From NCBI GenBank assembly GCA_963830015.1, contig CAWHLG010000004.1:657-64656 (forward strand): a stretch of DNA of 64,000 bases. Reading direction: 5' to 3'. A program made the position numbers and the translations under genes. Shown in pieces: positions 2,383 through 33,527 of this stretch. Position 1 is the stretch's first letter. The number at the start of each line of letters is the position of its first letter. Source of the DNA: an uncultured Alphaproteobacteria bacterium (GTDB lineage: Bacteria > Pseudomonadota > Alphaproteobacteria > Rhizobiales > Xanthobacteraceae). The notes under the pieces are model-generated. The model had not been told where the DNA came from. It searched no databases and saw only the letters and a program-made list of their open reading frames with translations.

Positions 2383-2739
2383 ATGCCCACATTCATGTCG
2401 CCTTATCTGCTGCCGGTCCTTCTGCTGATCGGCTCCAATATCTTCATGACCATCGCCTGGTACGGTCATCTTCGTTTCAAGGAAACGCCGCTGCTCGGCG
2501 TCATTCTCGCGAGCTGGGGCATTGCGCTGGTCGAATACTGCATGGCGGTGCCGGCCAACCGCTGGGGCAGCGCGGTCTATACGACGGCGCAGCTCAAGAC
2601 CATGCAGGAGGTCATAACGCTCGTGGTGTTCGCCGGCTTCTCGGTGTTCTATCTCAAGGAAGCGTTCACCTGGAATCATGCGGTTGGCTTCGCACTGATT
2701 GCCGGCGGCGTTTTTTTTGTCTTTCGCGGGCCGCTCTGA
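2383..2739 (+). CDS. DMT family protein (DUF486-like)
   Basis: 118 aa hydrophobic protein with SNIFMTIAWYGHL and QLKTMQEVITL motifs. Confidence 0.85.
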   Translation: MPTFMSPYLLPVLLLIGSNIFMTIAWYGHLRFKETPLLGVILASWGIALVEYCMAVPANRWGSAVYTTAQLKTMQEVITLVVFAGFSVFYLKEAFTWNHAVGFALIAGGVFFVFRGPL

Positions 2740-2908
2740 AGCGAGGCCACTGGCTCCAGGGACGCGGGAAATGCGATCAATCCGCGCCTCGGCGCGCCCG
2801 CCGATGTCGAGGGCGGCCGCGGCGCGACCTTGGTGCGAAGATGTGATCAAGTATCGCTAAGCCGATTCGACCGGGGTTTGCTCGGACTGCCATTCTTCGG
2901 GAATTGAT

Positions 2909-3766
2909 ATGGCCGGACTTCGGAAACTGACGCTTGCGCTGGCCATCGTCGCGACGCTGGCCGACAGTGCTCTGGCCGAGACCCCACCGGATGCAGAGCG
3001 TCGGCGAACGCTCGCGGCGCCGGCGCCCGACGGGACCAACCGGCTTCTGCCGGTCAGCCTTCAGCGTCCGCCGGGCCGTGGCCCGTTTCCGCTGGTCGTC
3101 ATCAATCACGGATCGCCGCCGTCGAAAGAGCGGCCGAAAATGGCGATGCCGACCTTCTCGAGTGCGTCGAACTGGTTTCTCGCAAAGGGCTATGCGGTGG
3201 CCCTGCCGCTTCGGCGCGGCTACGGCGCGGTCGGCGGAACGTGGGATGAAGGCTATGGACCTTGCGGCAAGCCCGACTTTCACAATGCCGGAATCGAGAC
3301 GGCGAGAGACATGGAAGCATCATTGAAGAAGGTGCTGGAAGAGGCCGACATCGCAAAGCGAGGCGTGCTCATTGTCGGTCAATCGGCCGGCGGCTGGGGC
3401 ACGCTCGCTTTGTCCACGCGGCCACACCCTGCCGTCGTTGGGCTCATCAATTTCGCAGGCGGGCGAGGCGGGCACAGGAATTCCAAGGCGGGGGAGAATT
3501 GCAGCCCCGACTCGCTCGTCAGGGCGGCCGGGGAGTTTGGCCGGAGCGCCAAGATCCCAATGCTGTGGATCTATACCGAAAACGATTCCTATTTCTCGCC
3601 CGACCTCGCGAGGTCCATGCACAAGGCCTTCACCGGCAATGGCGGAAAGGCGCAACTTCATATGCTCCCGCCGTTCGAAGAGGATGGACATCGCCTCCTT
3701 GGCAGAAGGTCCGGCGTGCCCGCGTGGGAGCCTCTCGTTGCGCCGTTCATCGCAACGTTGCGCTGA
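2909..3766 (+). CDS. Secreted alpha/beta hydrolase (dienelactone hydrolase-like)
   Basis: Signal peptide, VVINHGS, nucleophile motif GQSAGG, C-terminal DGH. Confidence 0.8.
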   Translation: MAGLRKLTLALAIVATLADSALAETPPDAERRRTLAAPAPDGTNRLLPVSLQRPPGRGPFPLVVINHGSPPSKERPKMAMPTFSSASNWFLAKGYAVALPLRRGYGAVGGTWDEGYGPCGKPDFHNAGIETARDMEASLKKVLEEADIAKRGVLIVGQSAGGWGTLALSTRPHPAVVGLINFAGGRGGHRNSKAGENCSPDSLVRAAGEFGRSAKIPMLWIYTENDSYFSPDLARSMHKAFTGNGGKAQLHMLPPFEEDGHRLLGRRSGVPAWEPLVAPFIATLR

Positions 3767-3775
3767 CGATCCGCT

Positions 3776-5839
3776 GTGCGGGCCATGATCCGACGCGTTC
3801 CGGTCCGTGCGGTCGTCTCGGCCTCGATGCTGTGCGCGCTGTCCTGCGGCTTCGCTGAAGCCGAGGCGGCGCCGCGCGGCGGATATGCCGTGGGCGCTGA
3901 AACCTGCGGCGAGGCGCCGTTCGCGTTTCCCCGGCTTCGCATCGGGCTGCGCAACGGATACTGCGCGGGGCTGGTGGCCGGCGCCGGCGACGGATTGCAA
4001 TTCCCGCGATCGATCGTCCAGGTCCCGGGTCACAACCTGTTCGTGGTCGTCGACATGGGCGGATGGATCCGGTCGAAGGGCCGCCTGCTGCTGCTCGATC
4101 CTTCGCTTCCGACGGGCCGCCGGACCAGGGTCCTGCTCGACCGCGTCGATTATCCATTCGGGCTGGTGATCGGCAACGACAACAGGATCTACAGCTCCAC
4201 CGCGGAAACGATCTTCCGGTTCGATCCGCTTGCGGCCGAACCCGCGCGCACCGTTGAAACCATCGTCAGGGGATTGCCGGCGCGCGACATCCGGCTTCCG
4301 GACGGAAGCCGGATCGACGAGAGCGCGCACATGATGAAGGCGTTCCTGTTCGACGCGGCGGGCCGGCTCTACGTCAATGTCGGCGCGCCGACCGATGCGT
4401 GCGTTGCCAAAGGGACGACCGCGAAGGGGTGCGCCGCAGGAGAGGGGCCCGCGCCGCTCGCGGCGATCTGGGCTTTCACGCCGCCGGGCGGCGTGTTCCC
4501 GGCGCTGAAGCCCGGCGACGCCAATCCGCCGATGCAGGTCTTCGCGCGCGGGCTCCGCAACTCGATGGCGCTGGCCGTGCATCCGCGCTTCCCCGCCGAC
4601 GGCGTTGCGTTCCTGCAGGCGGAGAACGCGCGCGATCTACCGGACCCGAAGAGCCCCAACGAGGAGCTGAACGCGATCGAGCAGGGCAGGCATTACGGCT
4701 GGCCCTACTGCTACGACCTTGCGACCGCGAGTCCGGAGTTCAAGGCGTTTCTCCAGGCCAGCCCGGCCTACAGGGATTTCTGCAACAACAAGGCGGCGTA
4801 TCGCCAGCCCCACTCTTTGCTGCCGCCGCACAGCGCGCCGCTCGCGATGTTCTACTATCGCGGCAGCCGGCTTCCCGAGCTGGATGGAAAGCTTCTGCTC
4901 GGGCTGCACGGCTACCGGCCGACCGGCAGCCGGGTGATCTTCTACGACGTCGACGCCAGGGGCTTTCCCGCCGTCAGTCCCGCGCCGGTGCGGTACAACG
5001 TGAGCTGCGCGGCCGAGCCCACCAGTCCGTTCCGGACCGCGCAGGAGCCGCAGGTGCCGGCGGCGGCGTTCACCGAACTCATATCGCAGTGGCACAAGGT
5101 GAACGGCGTGCGGCCGCAGGGCGCTCCGGTCGGCATGACGGTGGCCGCCGATGGCGCGATCTGGCTGGTCGAGGACAAGAACGCGACGGTCATCCGGATC
5201 GACGCCTCGCCGGGCACGCAGACGGAGGAGCTGCCCTGCGGCGCCCGCACCGGCCAGCAGATCGACCGGCTGATCGCCTATGTCCGCGCGAACGACGCGA
5301 ACAGGCGGCGCCTGCGCCAGATGCGGACCGGGCTCGTCGAGAAACATTGCGCCGGTTGCCATTCGGACTTCGATCTCCGCCCGGAGCAATCCGACGATCA
5401 GCGGGATGACGCCGTGCTGCGGTTCGCGCTGTCGCAGGACGGCTGGATCTATCCGGGCGATCCGGACGCCGGACGGCTCCGGACCCGGCTCCGCGGCATC
5501 GGGTCGGAGAAGGTGATGCCTGCCAACGGCCGCGACCTCATCGCCAAGGATCCCGCGTACCGGGCGCTGCTCGACTCGATCGACCTGCTGGTGGGAACCA
5601 TGGTGCCCGGCCAGCGCATGCGCGTGCGGCCCGGCCGGGTCGATCGCAGGTTCTACGACAAAAGCGGGAAAACCTGCGGCGCCATTCCCACCAACACGGT
5701 CGTCGTGGTGACCGAGAAGGCCGCCCGGGAAAAACCGGGTTTCAGCCGCATGTATCGCCCGGCCGATATCCATCTCAATGGCGAGTGCACGGACGACAAC
5801 GGGTATTACCTTGAACAAAGCAATGTCGCGCCTCTTTAG
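3776..5839 (+). CDS. Glucose/sorbosone dehydrogenase-family beta-propeller fused to a c-type cytochrome domain
   Basis: 687 aa with FARGLRNS, YGWPYC, HSAPLAMFY and GAPVGMTVAADGAIWL propeller motifs, plus C-terminal CAGCH heme motif followed by IYPGDPD...VMP. Confidence 0.8.
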   Translation: MRAMIRRVPVRAVVSASMLCALSCGFAEAEAAPRGGYAVGAETCGEAPFAFPRLRIGLRNGYCAGLVAGAGDGLQFPRSIVQVPGHNLFVVVDMGGWIRSKGRLLLLDPSLPTGRRTRVLLDRVDYPFGLVIGNDNRIYSSTAETIFRFDPLAAEPARTVETIVRGLPARDIRLPDGSRIDESAHMMKAFLFDAAGRLYVNVGAPTDACVAKGTTAKGCAAGEGPAPLAAIWAFTPPGGVFPALKPGDANPPMQVFARGLRNSMALAVHPRFPADGVAFLQAENARDLPDPKSPNEELNAIEQGRHYGWPYCYDLATASPEFKAFLQASPAYRDFCNNKAAYRQPHSLLPPHSAPLAMFYYRGSRLPELDGKLLLGLHGYRPTGSRVIFYDVDARGFPAVSPAPVRYNVSCAAEPTSPFRTAQEPQVPAAAFTELISQWHKVNGVRPQGAPVGMTVAADGAIWLVEDKNATVIRIDASPGTQTEELPCGARTGQQIDRLIAYVRANDANRRRLRQMRTGLVEKHCAGCHSDFDLRPEQSDDQRDDAVLRFALSQDGWIYPGDPDAGRLRTRLRGIGSEKVMPANGRDLIAKDPAYRALLDSIDLLVGTMVPGQRMRVRPGRVDRRFYDKSGKTCGAIPTNTVVVVTEKAAREKPGFSRMYRPADIHLNGECTDDNGYYLEQSNVAPL

Positions 5840-9677: not shown

Positions 9678-10081
9678 ATGAGCGAGCCTGTGTTTGCCGA
9701 CGGGAGTGTGTACGAACGGCTGATGGGCCGCTGGAGCAGGCTGGCCGGCCGGACGTTCCTGGACTGGCTCGCCTTGCCGAAGGGCCTGCGTTGCATCGAT
9801 GTCGGCTGCGGCAACGGTGCGTTCACCGAGGAGCTGATCGCGCACAGCGCGCCTGCGGGAGTTGCCGGCGTCGATCCGTCGGACGGACAGCTTGCGCATG
9901 CGCGCAGCCGGACTGAGGCGAGGCTTGCACAGTTTCAGACCGGCGACGCGCAGGCGCTGCCGTTTGCCGACCGCTCGTTCGACGCGGCCCTGATGGCGCT
10001 GGTGATCAGCTTCGTGCCGGATCCCGCCAAGGCCGTTCGCGAGATGGCTCGCGTGACGCGGCCGGGGGGCGTGGTCGCCAC
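9678..10081 (+). pseudogene. Class I SAM-dependent methyltransferase, 3'-truncated (ORF runs on to 10358 into ParE sequence)
   Basis: YERLMGRWS, IDVGCGNG, GDAQALPF and ARVTRPGG motifs. Similarity to the family stops after GGVVAT. Confidence 0.7.
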
Positions 10082-10358
10082 ATGCGACTGGCTCGCGCCG
10101 ACATACTCGATATCTGGACCTATGTTGCAGCCGATAATTTCAGCGGCCGATCGAGTCCTTGAACGGATTGAGCGTATCTTCGAGTCGATCGCGGAGCATC
10201 CGGAATTGGGCCGCGAGCGCTCCGAAATCATGGAGGGACTGCGCAGCTTTGCCGTTATGTCATGGGTGATCTTTTATCGAATAGATATGAATAGCGAGTC
10301 AGTCATCATTGCCCGAGTGCTTCACGGCGCTCGCGACCTGGACGAGTTCGACTACTGA
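10082..10358 (+). pseudogene. ParE/RelE-family toxin, N-terminally clipped, 1-nt frameshift at ~10139
   Basis: Frame from ATG 10082 reads MRLARADILDIWTYVAADN. The next frame reads SAADRVLERIERIFESIAEHPELGRERSEI...WVIFYR...IARVLHGARDL. Lower GC than the flanks. Confidence 0.75.
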
Positions 10359-10359
10359 T

Positions 10360-11478
10360 TCACTTTACCGGCACGACCTTCAGCACCCGGCCGGCCGAAT
10401 TGTCTGTGACCAGATAGATCGCGCCGTCGGGTCCCACGCGCACGTCGCGGATGCGCTCGCGCAACCCCTGCAGCAATCGCTCCTCGCCGGTCACCTTCTC
10501 GCCGTCGAGCGAGAGCCGCACCAGCATCTGGTCCTTCAGCGCGCCGACCAGCAGGCTGCCCTTCCACGCCGGGAACAGCTCGGCGTTGTAGAACGCCATG
10601 CCGGACGGCGCGATCGACGGCACCCAATATTTGACCGGCTGCTCCATGCCGGCTTGCGCCGACTTGCCGCTGCCGACCGGCGAGCCGTCATAGTTGACGC
10701 CGTGGCTGATCACCGGCCAGCCGTAGTTCTTTCCGGCCTGCGGAATGTTGACCTCGTCGCCGCCCTTCGCGCCGTGCTCGTGCTCCCAGAGCTTGCCGCT
10801 CTGCGGATGGATCGCCGCGCCCTGCGAGTTGCGGTGGCCGATGCTCCAGATTTCCGGCCTGGCATCCTTGCGGCCGGCGAACGGATTGTCCTTCGGCACC
10901 GAGCCATCCGTCGCGACGCGGACGATCTTGCCGATGTGATTGCCGAGCTTCTGGGCGTCGTCGCGATCCTTGAAATGGTCGCCCATGGTCAGGAACAGGT
11001 TGTTGTCCGGGGCTTGCGCGATGCGGCAGCCGAAATGGTGTCCGCTCGACAGCGGGCCTTCCTGGCGGAAAATGATTTTCACATCGTTGAGCTTGTCGTC
11101 CCCGAGCGTGGCACGCGCCAGGGACGTGCGCCCGCCGCCGCTCTCCGGCTCGGCGAAGCAGAAATAGATCGTCCGGTTCTGCGCGAAGCCGCGATCGGGC
11201 ACGACATCATGCAGGCCGCCCTGGCCGGAGGCGAACACCTTGGGCACGCCGCCGAGCGGCGCGCCGAGCTTGCCGTCCGCGGTGGCGATGCGCATGCGCC
11301 CCGGACGTTCCGTCACCAGCATGCGGCCGTCCGGCAGGAACGCCAGCGCCCACGGGTTTGCAAGCCCGCCGACCACCGTCTCGACCTTGAGATCCCCGGC
11401 GGAGGATTTGAAGGTTTGTGCAGAGGCTGCGGCGGGCAGTGCGGCAAGGAGGAGGGCGAGAACAAGCGGTCTGGTCAT
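10360..11478 (-). CDS. PQQ-dependent soluble aldose sugar dehydrogenase (YliI/GSDH family)
   Basis: GLANPWALAFLPDG, GQGGLHD, GHRNSQG, EHGAKGGDEVN, NYGWP, IAPSG and RIRDVRVGPDG motifs. Start chosen at ATG 11478. Confidence 0.92.
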   Translation of the reverse strand: MTRPLVLALLLAALPAAASAQTFKSSAGDLKVETVVGGLANPWALAFLPDGRMLVTERPGRMRIATADGKLGAPLGGVPKVFASGQGGLHDVVPDRGFAQNRTIYFCFAEPESGGGRTSLARATLGDDKLNDVKIIFRQEGPLSSGHHFGCRIAQAPDNNLFLTMGDHFKDRDDAQKLGNHIGKIVRVATDGSVPKDNPFAGRKDARPEIWSIGHRNSQGAAIHPQSGKLWEHEHGAKGGDEVNIPQAGKNYGWPVISHGVNYDGSPVGSGKSAQAGMEQPVKYWVPSIAPSGMAFYNAELFPAWKGSLLVGALKDQMLVRLSLDGEKVTGEERLLQGLRERIRDVRVGPDGAIYLVTDNSAGRVLKVVPVK

Positions 11479-11627
11479 GAAAGGCTTCCCTTGATGCGCG
11501 CAAATGTGGCGCGATCCGGCGGCGAAATCGCGCCGGCAGGGCAACACATCTTGGTGATGAATGTTTCGCTTCGAACGGCAGCCGGTCGCTCACAAACAAG
11601 TCAGCTCTACGGCGCACCGCCGCGGGG

Positions 11628-11660
11628 TTGACAGGCATTAATTCCGTTCTATGTTCGTTC
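11628..11660 (+). promoter_or_regulatory. Sigma70-like promoter (TTGACA-N16-TATGTT) overlapped by an alphaproteobacterial LexA box
   Basis: TTGACA 11628-33; TATGTT 11650-55; GTTC-TATGTTC-GTTC at 11646-11660 matches GTTC-N7-GTTC exactly. Confidence 0.7.
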
Positions 11661-12100
11661 TCATCCTGCCTGTTGAGGGGCACCATCCGGGTGGTTGCCG
11701 CTGGGAGAGGCAGGAACGGTCTGCCTGCGGGTCCGACTAACCACCGGACTCCCGGGACGCCTCGGACCCCGCCCTACGGGCACCAGATGACCCGTGCGCA
11801 GGGAGCCTGCTGGACTACCGGGTGAACACGTCAGTAGCCCGGGAAGGAAAGCGCGGCCCGAGAGCGAGTGAGGCCAAGGCCTCGCGAACACCGTGGTGGA
11901 GCGCCGCAAGGCGCGCCGGTCCGCGTCATGGGCCGGCAGTCCCTTCCGATGAAGGGACTGGCCCAACCGCAAGGCGGCCACGGGTGCGGCGTTCCGCACC
12001 AGCGCCTTTCGGCGCTCCGCTCCCCTCGCAGGAGGGGCAACAAGAAGAAACTTGGCAAAGCCCGGGCGCAGCGCGCCGCGGAAACGAGTTTCCACGTCCA
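11661..12100 (+). ncRNA. Candidate highly structured non-coding RNA or element of unknown family
   Basis: At least 10 short perfect stems (several with tetraloops), a possible pseudoknot, no credible ORF, and located directly downstream of the LexA-boxed promoter. Not recognised as a known RNA family. Confidence 0.45.
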
Positions 12101-12141
12101 CGTTTGACGGAGCGTTTTTGTTGAGCCGAGCACCACTCCAA

Positions 12142-12292
12142 CCCCGTCACCCTGAGGTTCGAGTGAGCGAAGCGAACGAGCCTCGAAGGGCGACGGCCCC
12201 GAAATCCCGGGCCGTTCATCCTTCGAGGCTCGCCATAGCGCGTCGAAGACGCGCGTCAACGCGCCTAGGGCTCGCACCTCAGGATGACGGGG
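12142..12292. repeat. REP-like palindromic element (CCGTCA(T/C)CCTGAGG...CCTCAGGATGACGG family) with nested mini-palindrome
   Basis: Terminal inverted arms plus inner GAGCCTCGAAGG/CCTTCGAGGCTC arms. Confidence 0.85.
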
Positions 12293-12336
12293 AGGGAGTG
12301 CGGTTGATTCAGCGCCCTGGGGCGGTCGCGGACCGG

Positions 12337-13623
12337 TTAGCGCGCGCGAGCCGCCGTCATCATGCTGCGCTGGCGCACCAGCAGCATGGACAGGATCGCG
12401 ATGTTGGCGACATTGAATGCGACGCCGGTCGCAAAGGCGGGCGTGTAATAGCCGTAGATGTCGTAGAGATAACCCGCGAGCCAGCCGCCGGTCGCCATGC
12501 CGCTGCCGCTGAACAGCAGCAGCGTCGGCACCCGCCAGTGTGCCTCGCTCATCGGATAGAGGTCGCGGATGGTCAGCACATAGGCCGGAATGAGCGCGCT
12601 GAAGCCGATGCCGAATGCGGTCGCGACCGTGAACAGCCCGACGGTGTTTTGCGTGAACAGAAATCCGCTCATCGCCGCGCATTGCATCAGCGAGCTGAGC
12701 AGCGCGGTGAGCAGCCCGCCCAGCCGGTCGGACAGGTAGCCCCAGCCCTGGCGGCTGAAGAAGCCCATGCCGAGCAGCAGCGACAGCATCGTCGCGCCCA
12801 TGGTCGCCGAGAGGCCGAGGTCGCTGCAGAACGCGACCAGATGCTGCTGCGGCATCGACATGGTGACGCAGCACAGGAACGACGCGAAGGTCAGCATCGC
12901 GAACACGACATTGGCATTCCAGCCGAGCACCTTCGGCCGGGTGCCGCCGGTGCCATGCGCGCCGCCCTCCTGCGGCAGCTCGGGCGGCGGGCGCAGGAAC
13001 GCGATCGCAAGCGGCAGGATCACCACGAGCTGGAGAACCGCGAAGCCGATCATGGTCCAGCGCCAGCCGACGAACGCGATCGAGCGTTCGAAGATGGTCG
13101 GCCAGACGAATCCCGCGAGATAGCCGCCGCTGGAAATCAGCGCCAGCGCCGAGCCGCGGCGGCGGTCGAACCAGCGGCTGACATAGACGAACAGCGGCGC
13201 GTTGAGGCCGGCATTGCCGATGAAGCCCATGAACAAGCCATGGCCGAGATAAAGCTGCCACGGCGCGCCGAGCGAGGAGATGCCAAGCCCCACCGCGATC
13301 ATCAGCGAGCCCGCGATCACCGTCCAGCGGATGCCGTAGCTGTTGGCGAGCCGCCCCATCAGCAGCCCGCCGGCGCCCGAGCCGAAGAAGGCGAGCGACA
13401 CCGCGAGCGAAGGGACCTGGCGCGCGCCGCCGGAAATGTCGTTGGCGATCTCTTTCAGTCCCACCGCCGCGATCCACGGCCCGCCGAACGACATGCCGAG
13501 CAGGACCAGCGAGACGCCGGCCACCACCCACGAGGTGCGCGTCTCGATGGACCGCGGCTGCTCGCCGCGTGTGTCGTCGGGCCGCGCCCCGTGCGGGGGC
13601 GGATTGCTGGTCTGGCTGGTCAA
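12337..13623 (-). CDS. MFS transporter
   Basis: About 12 hydrophobic segments, GRLANSYGIR and GYLSDRLGG loop motifs, WFDRRRGSAL. Start (TTG 13623) uncertain. Confidence 0.85.
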   Translation of the reverse strand: MTSQTSNPPPHGARPDDTRGEQPRSIETRTSWVVAGVSLVLLGMSFGGPWIAAVGLKEIANDISGGARQVPSLAVSLAFFGSGAGGLLMGRLANSYGIRWTVIAGSLMIAVGLGISSLGAPWQLYLGHGLFMGFIGNAGLNAPLFVYVSRWFDRRRGSALALISSGGYLAGFVWPTIFERSIAFVGWRWTMIGFAVLQLVVILPLAIAFLRPPPELPQEGGAHGTGGTRPKVLGWNANVVFAMLTFASFLCCVTMSMPQQHLVAFCSDLGLSATMGATMLSLLLGMGFFSRQGWGYLSDRLGGLLTALLSSLMQCAAMSGFLFTQNTVGLFTVATAFGIGFSALIPAYVLTIRDLYPMSEAHWRVPTLLLFSGSGMATGGWLAGYLYDIYGYYTPAFATGVAFNVANIAILSMLLVRQRSMMTAARAR

Positions 13624-28090: not shown

Positions 28091-29363
28091 CTACTTTATC
28101 GGCTGCGCCGCCGAATGCCACCCGGCGGTAAAGCCCGTCTCGGCCGCGGCCTGCCGCAGGACCAGCACGAACATCAGCAGCATGGCCGGCACGCCGAGCG
28201 GAACCAGCGTCTGCTCGGCGATACTGCGGGCGATCAGCGGCATGAACCAGAGCAGCGCCAGCGCGGTTTTCTGCCAGGGCGCGAAGCCGCGGGCGAGGCC
28301 GTCGGCCGCAAGAAATGCAATCGCCGGGGCGAGAATCACGAGGTCGTAGTCGAGGCTGTAGGGCGTGGCGAGAACCAGCGCGACGATCAGCGCCGCGGCC
28401 TTGAGCGGATAGGCCGCGGCGCTGCGCCAGAGCCAGGTCAGCGCCGCTGCGACCGCGATCATCACCGCGCCTTGCGCGACGTAGGCGAGGGGATGCCGCC
28501 GCCCCACATCCGCACCATCGCGAACACGCTCTGGATCTTGTGCCAGCCGGTGCCGCCCTGCTCCAGCACCTCGACGCGGGTGAGATGCGCCGAGCCGAAA
28601 AACGCTCGCCAGACGTCGGGGCCGAACGCGACAAAGGTTGCAAGCGTGAGAGCCGCGACTGTCGCCGCTGCGGCGAGGAACGCGCGCCAGCGGCCGGTCG
28701 CGCCCAGCACCAGCGGGATCATCACGCCGAATTGCGGCTTGTAGGCCATCAGGCCGAACAGGACTCCGGCGACCAGCGGCCGGCGGTCGAGCACCACCAG
28801 CGCCGTGCCGATCAGCGCCGCGGTGAGAAAGCCGTTGTGGCCGTGGCCGATGTTGACGAACACCGCCGGGAAGGCGAGGGCTGCGAGCAGCCACAACGGG
28901 CTCTCCAGCGCGCGTGGTTTCAGCGCGCATCGTTTCGGAGCGGAGGAGCGCAGGATCAGCCACACCGCGCCGAGATAGAGCGCAAGCGTCGCCGCCTGCC
29001 ACGCCGCCAGCGCCAGAGCGTAAGGCATCAGCGCCAGCAGTCCGGCGACGAACAGGAAATAGGGCGGATAGTGCCAGCCGTAAAACGGAGTCTTGTCGCC
29101 GAAGATCTGCCGCTCGCGTCCGTGCTGCGCCGGCCAGTCGAACGCCGCCGCGGGCTTGCCGTCCAGCACATGGGTGCCGGCCGCATAGACGTTGGAGAAG
29201 TCGGTGCCGAGCGGCCGGCCCTGATAGTCGTTGAGCCCGTCCGACGTCGCGAGCAGGAACCGAGGCCGAGAACCGAAGCGGCAAGCATCGCGACCGCCCA
29301 AAGGCGGGTGCGCTCGCGGGTGAGCCACCGGCCGTCACGCATTGCGGCGAAGAAAGCGCTCAT
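28091..29363 (-). CDS. GT87/DUF2029 family membrane glycosyltransferase (two homopolymer frameshifts, ~29265 and ~28490)
   Basis: GTDFSNVYAAG, WHYPP, GHNGF, YKPQFG and PYSLDYD motifs across three joined frames. Confidence 0.82.
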
Positions 29364-32356: not shown

Positions 32357-32523
32357 TGTGCCCCGGATGCGGTGCCAAAAGCGCGTCCACGCGCATCTTC
32401 GACGCGCTATGGCGTCAGCGGTGCACCGCTGATCCGGGGCCGTATCAGATACCGCCTTTGGAACGGTCCCGGGTCTGCAGCGCATCATTCGCTTACGCTC
32501 ATGCTGCGCTGCGCCCGGGACAC
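32357..32523. repeat. REP-like element (TG(T/C)CCCGGATGCG...GCGCCCGGGACAC family) with nested mini-palindrome
   Basis: Same architecture as 62285..62442; contains AGCGCGTCCACGCGCATCTTCGACGCGCTATGG. Confidence 0.8.
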
Positions 32524-33323: not shown

Positions 33324-33527
33324 TGCTGTTCCCGCCCCGATGAATGCCGTATTTGCCAGCAATTTCGGCCTTTTCGGCCGGGCTGGCAACGGCTTGGCAG
33401 CGGGCTTTCGGCGGCCGGGCACCAGCGCGTTTACGCGCGTCTGGCACGCGCTAGGCGCGCCGCCCATCAACCGGTTTGATACTGCGATCACCGATTGCGT
33501 CTTGCCGCGACCGCCCCGGACCAATAG

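Follow-up and report, generated by a model that had tools for sequence, protein, structure and literature searches.

The window analysed here is a 64,000-nucleotide (nt) stretch of contig CAWHLG010000004.1, from an uncultured alphaproteobacterium of the Xanthobacteraceae, and it contains a member of a previously undescribed family of large structured non-coding RNAs (ncRNAs; 376-561 nt) from uncultured soil Xanthobacteraceae/Hyphomicrobiales. This copy is ~430 nt long and, together with its promoter, occupies window positions 11621-12088 (+), between a divergent glucose/sorbosone dehydrogenase (GSDH) gene and a convergent MFS transporter gene. The existence, structure and expression of the RNA are firm, and it is rated a new class that fits no known family. 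An earlier reading of the sequence (the original prediction) had proposed for this stretch either a structured RNA repressed by LexA and induced by DNA damage, or a non-autonomous mobile element carrying its own SOS promoter.

Family size, hosts and copy number

A synteny search via GSDH homologues was expected to give orthologous RNAs but showed relatives without the RNA, and the search was therefore moved to pattern scans. In DNA metagenomes, the summed contig depth on the RNA exceeds that on its flanks 10-80-fold, and contig joints skip internal RNA domains, which led to a scan for more copies with an 18-mer from the least variable part of the RNA (GCAGGGAGCCTGCTGGAC, 11798-11815). The exact 18-mer is found at at least 120 loci in Joint Genome Institute (JGI) metagenomes and at 90 loci in a set of one genome per GTDB species. 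Of these, 182 loci with a total of 184 copies were verified by iterated nhmmer. The distribution and copy numbers are lower bounds, given the requirement for a perfect 18-mer match. The remaining 18-mer matches are due to chance, for example those in Paenibacillus and Streptomyces. Divergent copies without the exact 18-mer exist, such as those at locus L221, with a compensatory GCCAG-GAG-CUGGC in helix H8 (Table 1).

The genome matches are all metagenome-assembled genomes (MAGs), classified as Xanthobacteraceae, Hyphomicrobiales, 'Rhodoplanes piscinae', Variibacter and uncultured Alphaproteobacteria, with a few other-labelled bins; there are no cultured isolates among the retrieved genome matches. 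The 31 species-representative MAGs contain 78 copies, with the highest numbers in JAIESI01 (13), CAWFCM01 (10) and CANJBX01 (7), and copies within a genome share 70-98% identity. In source-like metagenomes, the window-type RNA (at least 93% identity) is 10-20 times deeper than the single-copy flank, and near-identical (95-99%) copies are found behind at least six different upstream sequences, several within one metagenome sample.

Copies are occasionally clustered. L133 has tandem copies on the same strand within ~1.5 kb (2991-3404 and 4550-4941), L221 has two in tandem (~2590-3144), also within ~1.5 kb, and in L092 two convergent copies (3063-3436 + and 3513-3927 -) lie ~80 nt apart. In IMG/VR, the 18-mer match at L220 is spurious, and two divergent copies (L221 and L222) occur in 'viral' contigs. 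The left end of a Mu-like prophage, encoding an S24-peptidase repressor, MuA, MuB and DUF3164, is found at L221 4206-11944, with a REP and the two divergent copies of the RNA next to it. These copies are set off from the Mu-like genes by ~1 kb, on one side, and a link to phages was therefore rejected.

Conserved fold and covariation

Covariation among homologues, named in the original prediction as a check, shows that the fold of this RNA is under selection. RNAalifold on alignment A1, which comprises 57 non-redundant full-length copies (376-561 nt), gives 54 pairs, 31 of them with compensatory double changes. A curated model of 65 pairs in nine helices, counted on A1, has 93.3% of its cells paired, against 82.2% in shuffled alignments (0/500) and 38-48% in slid controls. 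Double-change pairs number 36, against 25.7 shuffled, and the covariation score is 0.360, against 0.166 shuffled (0/500) and 0.05-0.11 in slid controls. In several columns, 17-28 sequences have G-U or U-G as the alternative pair; these would be A-C mismatches on the other strand, and the RNA is therefore read from the + strand. In the window itself, the 456 nt 3' of the promoter have a minimum free energy of -247 kcal/mol (z = -5.06) on the + strand and a weaker fold on the - strand (z = -3.17), in keeping with the hairpin-dense stretch originally described.

The 5' end of the RNA forms a hairpin domain, P1, the outer stem of which is the window's own minimum-energy pairing (z -3.72) and covaries in family alignment A3 (in which the window's row is shifted by one position). 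Its apical stem has pair counts of UA 32 / CG 18 / UG 6. Segment A, within P1, pairs with the distant segment B, with covarying pairs at GC 22 / CG 18, AU 22 / GC 21 and GC 23 / AU 22. Segment B can also form a local hairpin with segment C, the CCCCTC/GAGGGG stem foreseen in the original prediction, and both A:B and B:C are possible in nearly all 57 copies. The A:B helix is genuine, given that in L183 it extends to 10 bp (AUUGAGGGGC/GCCCCUCAAU) whereas B:C has only 6 bp. It is possible that the two pairings constitute a conformational switch.

The core domain that follows, of ~180 nt, contains the least variable part of the RNA. The proposed stem 11686-97/11738-48 and the pseudoknot 11729-36/11762-69 are mostly non-canonical in the family, and helices 11732-35/11745-48 and 11760-65/11858-64 covary in their place; the proposed AGGCAG/CTGCCT stem loses to the minimum-energy and covarying P1 stem (11665-71/11708-14), and GGAAAC/GTTTCC is not conserved. 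The ACGGG/CCCGT stem, by comparison, is borne out by covariation in the 57 homologues. GCAGG/CCTGC (H8) is invariant and is thus neither supported nor contradicted by covariation, and this invariance is an ascertainment effect of the exact 18-mer.

The complementarity between 11898-11914 and 12002-12018 was correctly identified as enclosing a multi-hairpin domain: it is a 17-bp duplex, the centre of which covaries (AU 30 / CG 10 / GC 8 / GU 4). The hairpins of the inner domain recur, with compensating differences seen by eye, in the relatives that share this domain, and relatives that lack it appear as joints skipping 88 nt. The hairpin with the GCAA (GNRA) loop can form, but as a local alternative to the long duplex. 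In loci L104 and L118, the 3' limit of homology is 12088, and the pairings of the window beyond this position are not conserved in the family. No intrinsic terminator was called in a scan of 11300-12500.

Table 1. Positions of the RNA, its promoter elements, its helices and the adjoining features in the window
Feature	Position	Strand	Basis or remarks
-35 hexamer TTGACA	11628..11633	+	Promoter scan; family homology starts about here (11621)
-10 hexamer TATGTT	11650..11655	+	Promoter scan; spacer 16
GTTC-N7-GTTC direct repeat GTTCTATGTTCGTTC	11646..11660	+	Alphaproteobacterial LexA-type operator, overlaps -10
Conserved ncRNA body	11662..12088	+	Transcription start inferred, 3' end approximate; may reach T-run ~12120
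P1 hairpin domain	11665..11714	+	Stem 11665-71/11708-14, apical hairpin 11681-85/11692-96
Segment A (UGAGGGG)	11674..11680	+	Long-range helix with segment B, 12022-12028; pseudoknotted with P1
Core domain	11716..11894	+	Closing helix 11716-22/11890-94 (RNAalifold, pair counts)
Core helix H4	11724-29/11751-56	+	
Core helix H5	11732-36/11744-48	+	
Core helix H6	11760-65/11858-64	+	
Core helix H7	11775-80/11791-96	+	Covarying
Core helix H8	11798-802/11806-10	+	
Core helix H9	11815-19/11842-47	+	
18-mer GCAGGGAGCCUGCUGGAC	11798..11815	+	Invariant H8 hairpin (GCAGG-GAG-CCUGC, GAG loop) plus UGGAC
17-bp long-range duplex	11898-11914/12002-12018	+	Encloses variable multi-hairpin domain 11915-12001
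Segments B (CCCCUCG) and C (GAGGGG, 12031-36)	12022..12036	+	Local hairpin competing with A:B
3'-terminal conserved hairpin CCGGGCGC-AGC-GCGCC-G-CGG	12062..12080	+	Alignment A1 and fold
REP-like palindromic repeats	12130..12300	.	Adjoin RNA; outside RNA family, inside insertion
GSDH gene	10360-11481	-	PQQ-type glucose/sorbosone dehydrogenase (Pfam); divergent from RNA
MFS transporter gene	stop at 12337	-	Pfam MFS_1; convergent with RNA

Transcription and non-coding status

The RNA is transcribed in situ. The RNA stretch is present in many soil, rhizosphere, freshwater, wetland and ice metatranscriptome runs, and in the eight runs that were aligned, contigs extend from ~11654/11661/11678 to 12029/12061/12087. 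In the four runs for which the flanks were spanned, the depth is zero at the 5' end of GSDH (11388-11528) and at MFS (12328 onward); the other four were compared over 11560-12200 only. The Logan contigs used are unstranded, and the transcription start is inferred rather than mapped. No RNA-seq run with damage treatment was found.

Four mechanical open reading frames (ORFs) of 65-146 amino acids overlap the RNA region, so the stretch is ORF-poor, as originally described, only in the sense that none of the four has a Pfam match and that close variants in public runs differ from the window by 1-2-nt indels. Covariation, the lack of a Pfam match or coding signature, and transcript contigs confined to the RNA together support the window copy as a structured ncRNA with no protein gene behind its promoter. 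Type I toxin loci are typically LexA-controlled, highly structured and multicopy, properties that would also suit an SOS-induced mRNA like tisB or dinQ, encoding a small toxic peptide and having a long, structured untranslated region. However, indels of 1-2 nt and insertions of tens of nt occur throughout the alignment, in close and distant copies alike, and substitutions follow base pairs and not codons, in addition to the lack of Pfam matches; of all the explanations considered, this is the least probable.

Promoter architecture and the LexA-type box

The predicted TTGACA-N16-TATGTT promoter (11628-11655) was located as the sole sigma-70-like promoter in 11300-12500 (shuffle mean 0.1), with the GTTC-N7-GTTC repeat over its -10 (11646-11660). 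GTTCN7GTTC is the SOS box of Caulobacter and other alphaproteobacteria (PMC9578287 Table 1, PMC6237742), in agreement with its earlier designation as the alphaproteobacterial LexA operator. GTTCTATGTTCGTTC is the only such repeat in the window; with 1.8 chance matches expected per 64 kb, the box alone is not significant and becomes so through its conservation in the paralogues.

The start of homology is no more than a few bases from the -35 in essentially all copies, with nhmmer matches starting at model positions 2-6 in most of them, and the sequence upstream is unrelated. Relatives have TATATT or TATTTG as the -10, at the same distance from the 5' hairpin of the RNA. Among the 125 copies with a complete 5' end, on which the promoter counts are based, 22 have a LexA-type box, in three different arrangements. 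The window type is TTGACAGGCATTAATTCC-GTTCTATGTTCGTTC. In the second arrangement, TTGAC is followed by 10-11 variable bases and TGTTCTCTATTTGTTCT, the box being nearly invariant and the adjacent spacer freely variable, and in the third, TTGACAA-GTTCTCGTTTTGTTC-TATTGA, the box is within the spacer. MAG JAIESI01 has a perfect box in 11 of its 13 copies, which comprise two RNA subtypes with the second and third arrangements.

TTGAC is present in nearly all 22 box-bearing promoters and in 97 of the 103 box-less copies. In many box-less copies, repeats of the TATTCC/TATATTCC type occupy the spacer and the -10; 83/103 have one or more ATTC(C/T) and 34/103 have two, and direct repeats like ACTATATTCC-N3-ACTATATTCC span the spacer and the -10 in many (e.g. 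L126 126-165). A strict TATTCC-type motif has 14 sites in 1.27 Mb of related DNA, all at RNA copies and none elsewhere, and this confinement means that no regulon or regulator is identifiable.

As an internal control, locus L072, with an RNA copy 98.6% identical to that of the window, also contains TTGACT-ATTT-GTTCTTGTTTTGTTC (TTGACTATTT-GTTCTTGTTTTGTTC, 2225-2254) directly upstream of an ORF with an impB/mucB/samB domain (IMS, Y-family polymerase; E = 9e-42). This polymerase gene is a classic SOS gene and a clear instance of the box in the lineage. The box accompanies the RNA into at least six other upstream contexts and is absent upstream of GSDH in relatives without the RNA insertion. It therefore belongs to the RNA and not to GSDH, contrary to the possibility, raised in the original prediction, that it controls only the divergent gene. 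The window copy has what would be expected of a LexA regulon member on sequence criteria, namely a direct repeat at the promoter, its conservation, and the same box at a canonical SOS gene of the lineage, and LexA likely represses this copy.

A REP- or MITE-type (miniature inverted-repeat transposable element) DNA repeat, or an element that folds as single-stranded DNA, with incidental transcripts and a GTTC repeat that is due to chance or is the site of another protein, might be proposed instead. REP-like repeats adjoin the RNA here and trail its copies in L014, L057 and L221, the box is not significant in one window, and most copies carry a different repeat. Such an element would not readily explain the -35/-10 pair conserved at a fixed distance in essentially all copies, the RNA contigs from many metatranscriptomes that span the element but leave its neighbours uncovered, or the strand-specific G-U pattern, long-range helices and expansion domains typical of functional RNAs. 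The box has also stayed the same, in each of three arrangements, where the spacers vary, and a dinB-like (Y-family) polymerase promoter has it too. An explanation of this kind is very improbable.

Insertion between the MFS and GSDH genes

The exact GSDH protein of the window is not on record, and GSDH homologues of 78-88% identity were compared, including that of Rhodoplanes sp. Z2-YC6860, the closest named organism. In these relatives, the MFS and GSDH genes are adjacent, with GSDH immediately downstream of MFS, 55-190 nt apart and without the RNA, and the RNA and REP are thus an insertion in the window. The native block upstream of GSDH (AAACMTTCATCACCAAGATGTGTTG...) is retained at 11480-11570, and ~700 extra bases, consisting of the RNA unit, a short linker and the REP, separate it from the MFS stop. 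In one DNA contig of the same rhizosphere study, 11565 is fused to 12370, and this contig represents an insertion-free allele. In L218, which has the closest GSDH relative (95% identity), an IS4-type DDE transposase (L218 117-1253) is found almost at the start point of the RNA unit; the stretch between MFS and GSDH is an apparent hot spot for insertions. Neither terminal inverted repeats nor a target-site duplication were recognised, the empty sites from relatives being too diverged for base-exact junctions.

These observations bear on the main rival explanation, in which the RNA is an intermediate, guide or cofactor in its own spread as a selfish, non-autonomous mobile module; master copies encoding a cysteine-rich protein (described below) would mobilise RNA-only copies in trans, and SOS or repressor control would time the mobilisation, as it does in many mobile elements. 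The many dispersed copies in unrelated contexts without a recurrent neighbour, the near-identical copies in at least six upstream contexts, the insertion polymorphism at the window locus and the tolerance of this site for insertions, as indicated by the L218 transposase, are all consistent with such a module. So is the usually single ORF-bearing copy per genome where one is seen, which is reminiscent of autonomous/non-autonomous pairs. To this extent, the suggestion of a mobile element with its own SOS promoter was partly right, in that the RNA is multicopy, dispersed and inserted here. However, no transposase, reverse transcriptase or integrase, terminal inverted repeats or target-site duplications were recognised at the copies or the insertion site, and the left end is a promoter, as a duplicated gene would show. 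The within-genome divergence to 70% with compensatory changes also points to long-term selection on each RNA, and not only to recent bursts. A selfish module is possible, but it is considered a good deal less probable than the account of a trans-acting RNA given below.

Neighbouring genes and a cysteine-rich protein

Clustering of the neighbouring genes over 184 copies gives no recurrent partner other than one cysteine-rich ORF, and no coherent function. This ORF starts 0-90 nt after the RNA, on the same strand, in 18 loci (e.g. L126 ~620-1070, L060, L077, L041, L118 and L138), and among the genome-derived loci it is found in nine different MAGs, one copy each. The encoded protein is basic, with ~140 amino acids, the motif FW-x-x-C-x4-CRR-x3-C-x-x-D-x-H-x-CF and a C-terminal RIRRL; C49, R50, R51, C55, S56, D58, M59, H60, C62, F63 and W67 are invariant. 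Its relatives are metagenomic 'hypothetical' proteins only, and there is no match in Pfam, NCBIfam, PADLOC or PHROGs. An AlphaFold2 model is all-helical (predicted local distance difference test score, pLDDT, 77.7), and a Foldseek search of the model against the PDB returns nothing below E = 3. A distribution of this kind would suit a protein that works with the RNA as well as a mobile module with the ORF on its master copy.

The nearest downstream gene is co-directional in 39 and convergent in 26 of the 65 scorable copies. With 26/65 downstream genes convergent and no recurring neighbour family, the RNA is not a dedicated leader. A cis-acting leader or riboswitch-like element, with A:B versus B:C as its switch and the window copy as an orphaned relic, would account for the ORFs that begin within 90 nt in 18 loci, the mutually exclusive pairings in nearly all copies and the mild co-directional bias. 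Yet 40% of copies, including that of the window, face a convergent gene, the downstream genes are functionally incoherent, and RNA-only copies keep their fold via compensatory changes. In examples viewed by eye, neither hairpin precedes a U-run or overlaps the ribosome-binding site of the ORF, which is ~60 nt further on. A leader of this sort is improbable.

Comparison with known RNAs

Neither the window as a whole nor any of 12 diverse relatives has a match to an Rfam 15 family at the gathering score, in a test that covers RNase P, alpha tmRNA, 6S, Y RNA, HEARO, OLE, ROOL, GOLLD and riboswitches. At E <= 10, nothing meaningful is found in 11450-12400; the sole overlap in 11600-12120 is a chance match to H19 (12.9 bits, - strand). 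ARAGORN detects no tmRNA, including the two-piece alphaproteobacterial form, and no tRNA in the RNA region. The inability of the original prediction to assign the RNA to a family is thus upheld. Blastn ('distant' mode) against PLSDB plasmids and INPHARED phages gives no match, and literature searches, including full text, yielded no description of this RNA.

Several individual identities were considered and rejected: a tmRNA or tRNA-like RNA (ARAGORN empty), RNase P (no Rfam match), a group II intron remnant, a retron msr-msd (no reverse transcriptase nearby), a CsrB-like sponge (no repeated GGA loops) and an rRNA intervening sequence (the RNA has its own promoter).

The closest likeness is to the large 'ornate' bacterial ncRNAs, with functions that are unknown or emerging, and to the multicopy omega-RNA/HEARO elements. 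Of the ornate RNAs, OLE, ROOL and GOLLD are similarly several hundred nt long and abundant in transcriptomes, and they too combine numerous covarying helices with long-range pairings and expansion domains at the periphery; a protein partner may be involved here too. The present RNA differs in having no Rfam sequence or structure match, in its alphaproteobacterial Xanthobacteraceae host, in its location outside operons and prophages, and in having many diverged copies in a genome, all with operator-bearing promoters of their own. HEARO and the omega-RNAs of IscB and TnpB (insertion sequence families IS200/IS605) are also structured, a few hundred nt in length, and present as multiple dispersed copies, many of which lack an ORF whereas a few have one. 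Here, however, no IscB or TnpB nuclease and no TnpA is adjacent, and the neighbour clustering includes no IscB/TnpB (RuvC/HNH) family. The associated ORF is instead a 140-amino-acid orphan helical cysteine-rich protein, and the RNA has its own sigma-70 promoter and no Rfam HEARO or IS605-orfB match. It is not placed among the omega-RNAs or HEARO on these grounds.

The analogy to Y RNAs drawn in the original prediction does not extend far. Bacterial Y RNAs, the partners of Rsr/Ro, are likewise stress- or UV-linked structured ncRNAs that work within a ribonucleoprotein, but they are ~100-150 nt long and encoded beside rsr, with a Ro-binding stem and often a tRNA-like module. The window RNA is ~430 nt long, has GSDH and MFS as its neighbours and lacks a tRNA-like module. 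No Rfam Y RNA reaches the gathering score anywhere in the window, or E <= 10 within 11450-12400, and the RNA was not assigned to this class.

With regard to regulation, E. coli istR-2/tisB and dinQ share an SOS-type operator that overlaps the promoter of an RNA gene, and LexA sites are known at M. tuberculosis small RNA genes (PMC3381160). These E. coli and M. tuberculosis cases are short antisense or peptide-encoding RNAs, as opposed to the 430-nt non-coding fold found here. In Caulobacter, SOS boxes were sought at mitomycin- or damage-induced small RNA genes and none were found (PMC6237742). The present family, in contrast, provides a strong comparative case for an alphaproteobacterial ncRNA directly under a LexA-type operator.

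Proposed role of the RNA

The explanation favoured for the data as a whole, with a confidence slightly better than even, is a dispersed family of trans-acting structured RNAs with a LexA-switched promoter in the lineage of the window. In this lineage, LexA bound to GTTC-N7-GTTC over the -10 would occlude the promoter, and DNA damage would lead, via RecA-stimulated self-cleavage of LexA, to production of the RNA. The paralogue set would generally be under a promoter-bound repressor, with LexA taking that part in the window's lineage. In the weakest step of the scheme, the RNA would act in trans as a folded RNA, neither mRNA nor leader, and would probably work as a ribonucleoprotein with the small Cys/His-rich helical protein encoded just after some of the copies (usually one per genome where seen).

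Several points weigh against this explanation. The box is missing from 103 of the 125 promoters, and SOS control is therefore not a family-wide trait; the proposed LexA repression thus has comparative support for the window copy but does not apply to most family members. LexA binding and damage induction are themselves deduced from sequence comparison. Two RNA-run contigs begin upstream of the predicted start (at 11540 and 11621) and one variant RNA-run contig includes its own promoter box, and these upstream extensions could represent DNA carry-over, read-through or a different start. The idea of a partner protein derives from adjacency in a minority of copies, and this protein is without a Pfam, NCBIfam, PADLOC, PHROG or PDB-fold relative. 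The ascertainment effect described above for H8 and the copy counts should also be considered here.

A bolder version, which seems unlikely on present evidence, is an RNA-centred module in which a large ribozyme-like or scaffold RNA gene spreads with its own repressor-controlled promoter, together with a tiny, fold-orphan, zinc-binding-like protein made from a subset of copies (usually one per genome where seen), the paralogues of one lineage having been rewired to the SOS response. If true, the module would be functionally comparable to omega-RNA/TnpB or retrons, although its components would be unrelated to theirs.

Bacteria have few large RNAs with intricate folds and unknown functions, and OLE, GOLLD, ROOL and HEARO/omega-RNA each led to new biochemistry. 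The present family is abundant in soil metagenomes and metatranscriptomes, in lineages without cultured representatives among the retrieved matches, and it is unusual in combining a large number of diverged paralogues in a genome with private promoters that all bear an operator. The lineage-wide operator swap over a paralogue set (TATTCC repeats versus GTTC-N7-GTTC) offers a natural experiment on how regulation is rewired. A covariance model and an Rfam entry can now be made for the family, and chemical probing and structural studies can begin.

Other features of the window

The G+C content of the window is 66%. The stretch ends, as originally described, at a REP and the convergent MFS gene. 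The REP-like repeats (GTCACCCTGAGG...GAGCGAAGCGAACGAGCCTCGAAGGGCGACGG) have further copies in the window at 32381-32414 and 33425-33461, and reach a summed depth of up to ~6000 in soil metagenomes and ~1000 in metatranscriptomes.

Beyond the GSDH gene, a chimeric ORF at 9678-10358 (+) contains an S-adenosylmethionine (SAM) methyltransferase domain in residues 30-142 and, over residues 156-220, is similar to a ParE toxin in the C-terminal two thirds of the latter (Pfam E = 2.8e-14). Relatives encode a 264-amino-acid methyltransferase at the equivalent position, and the ORF suggests a parDE fragment fused into, or truncating, a methyltransferase gene. Finally, ARAGORN calls an 87-nt 'tRNA-Asp' with the unusual anticodon ATC at 28920-29006 (-), which is probably a false positive or a degenerate tRNA-like sequence.

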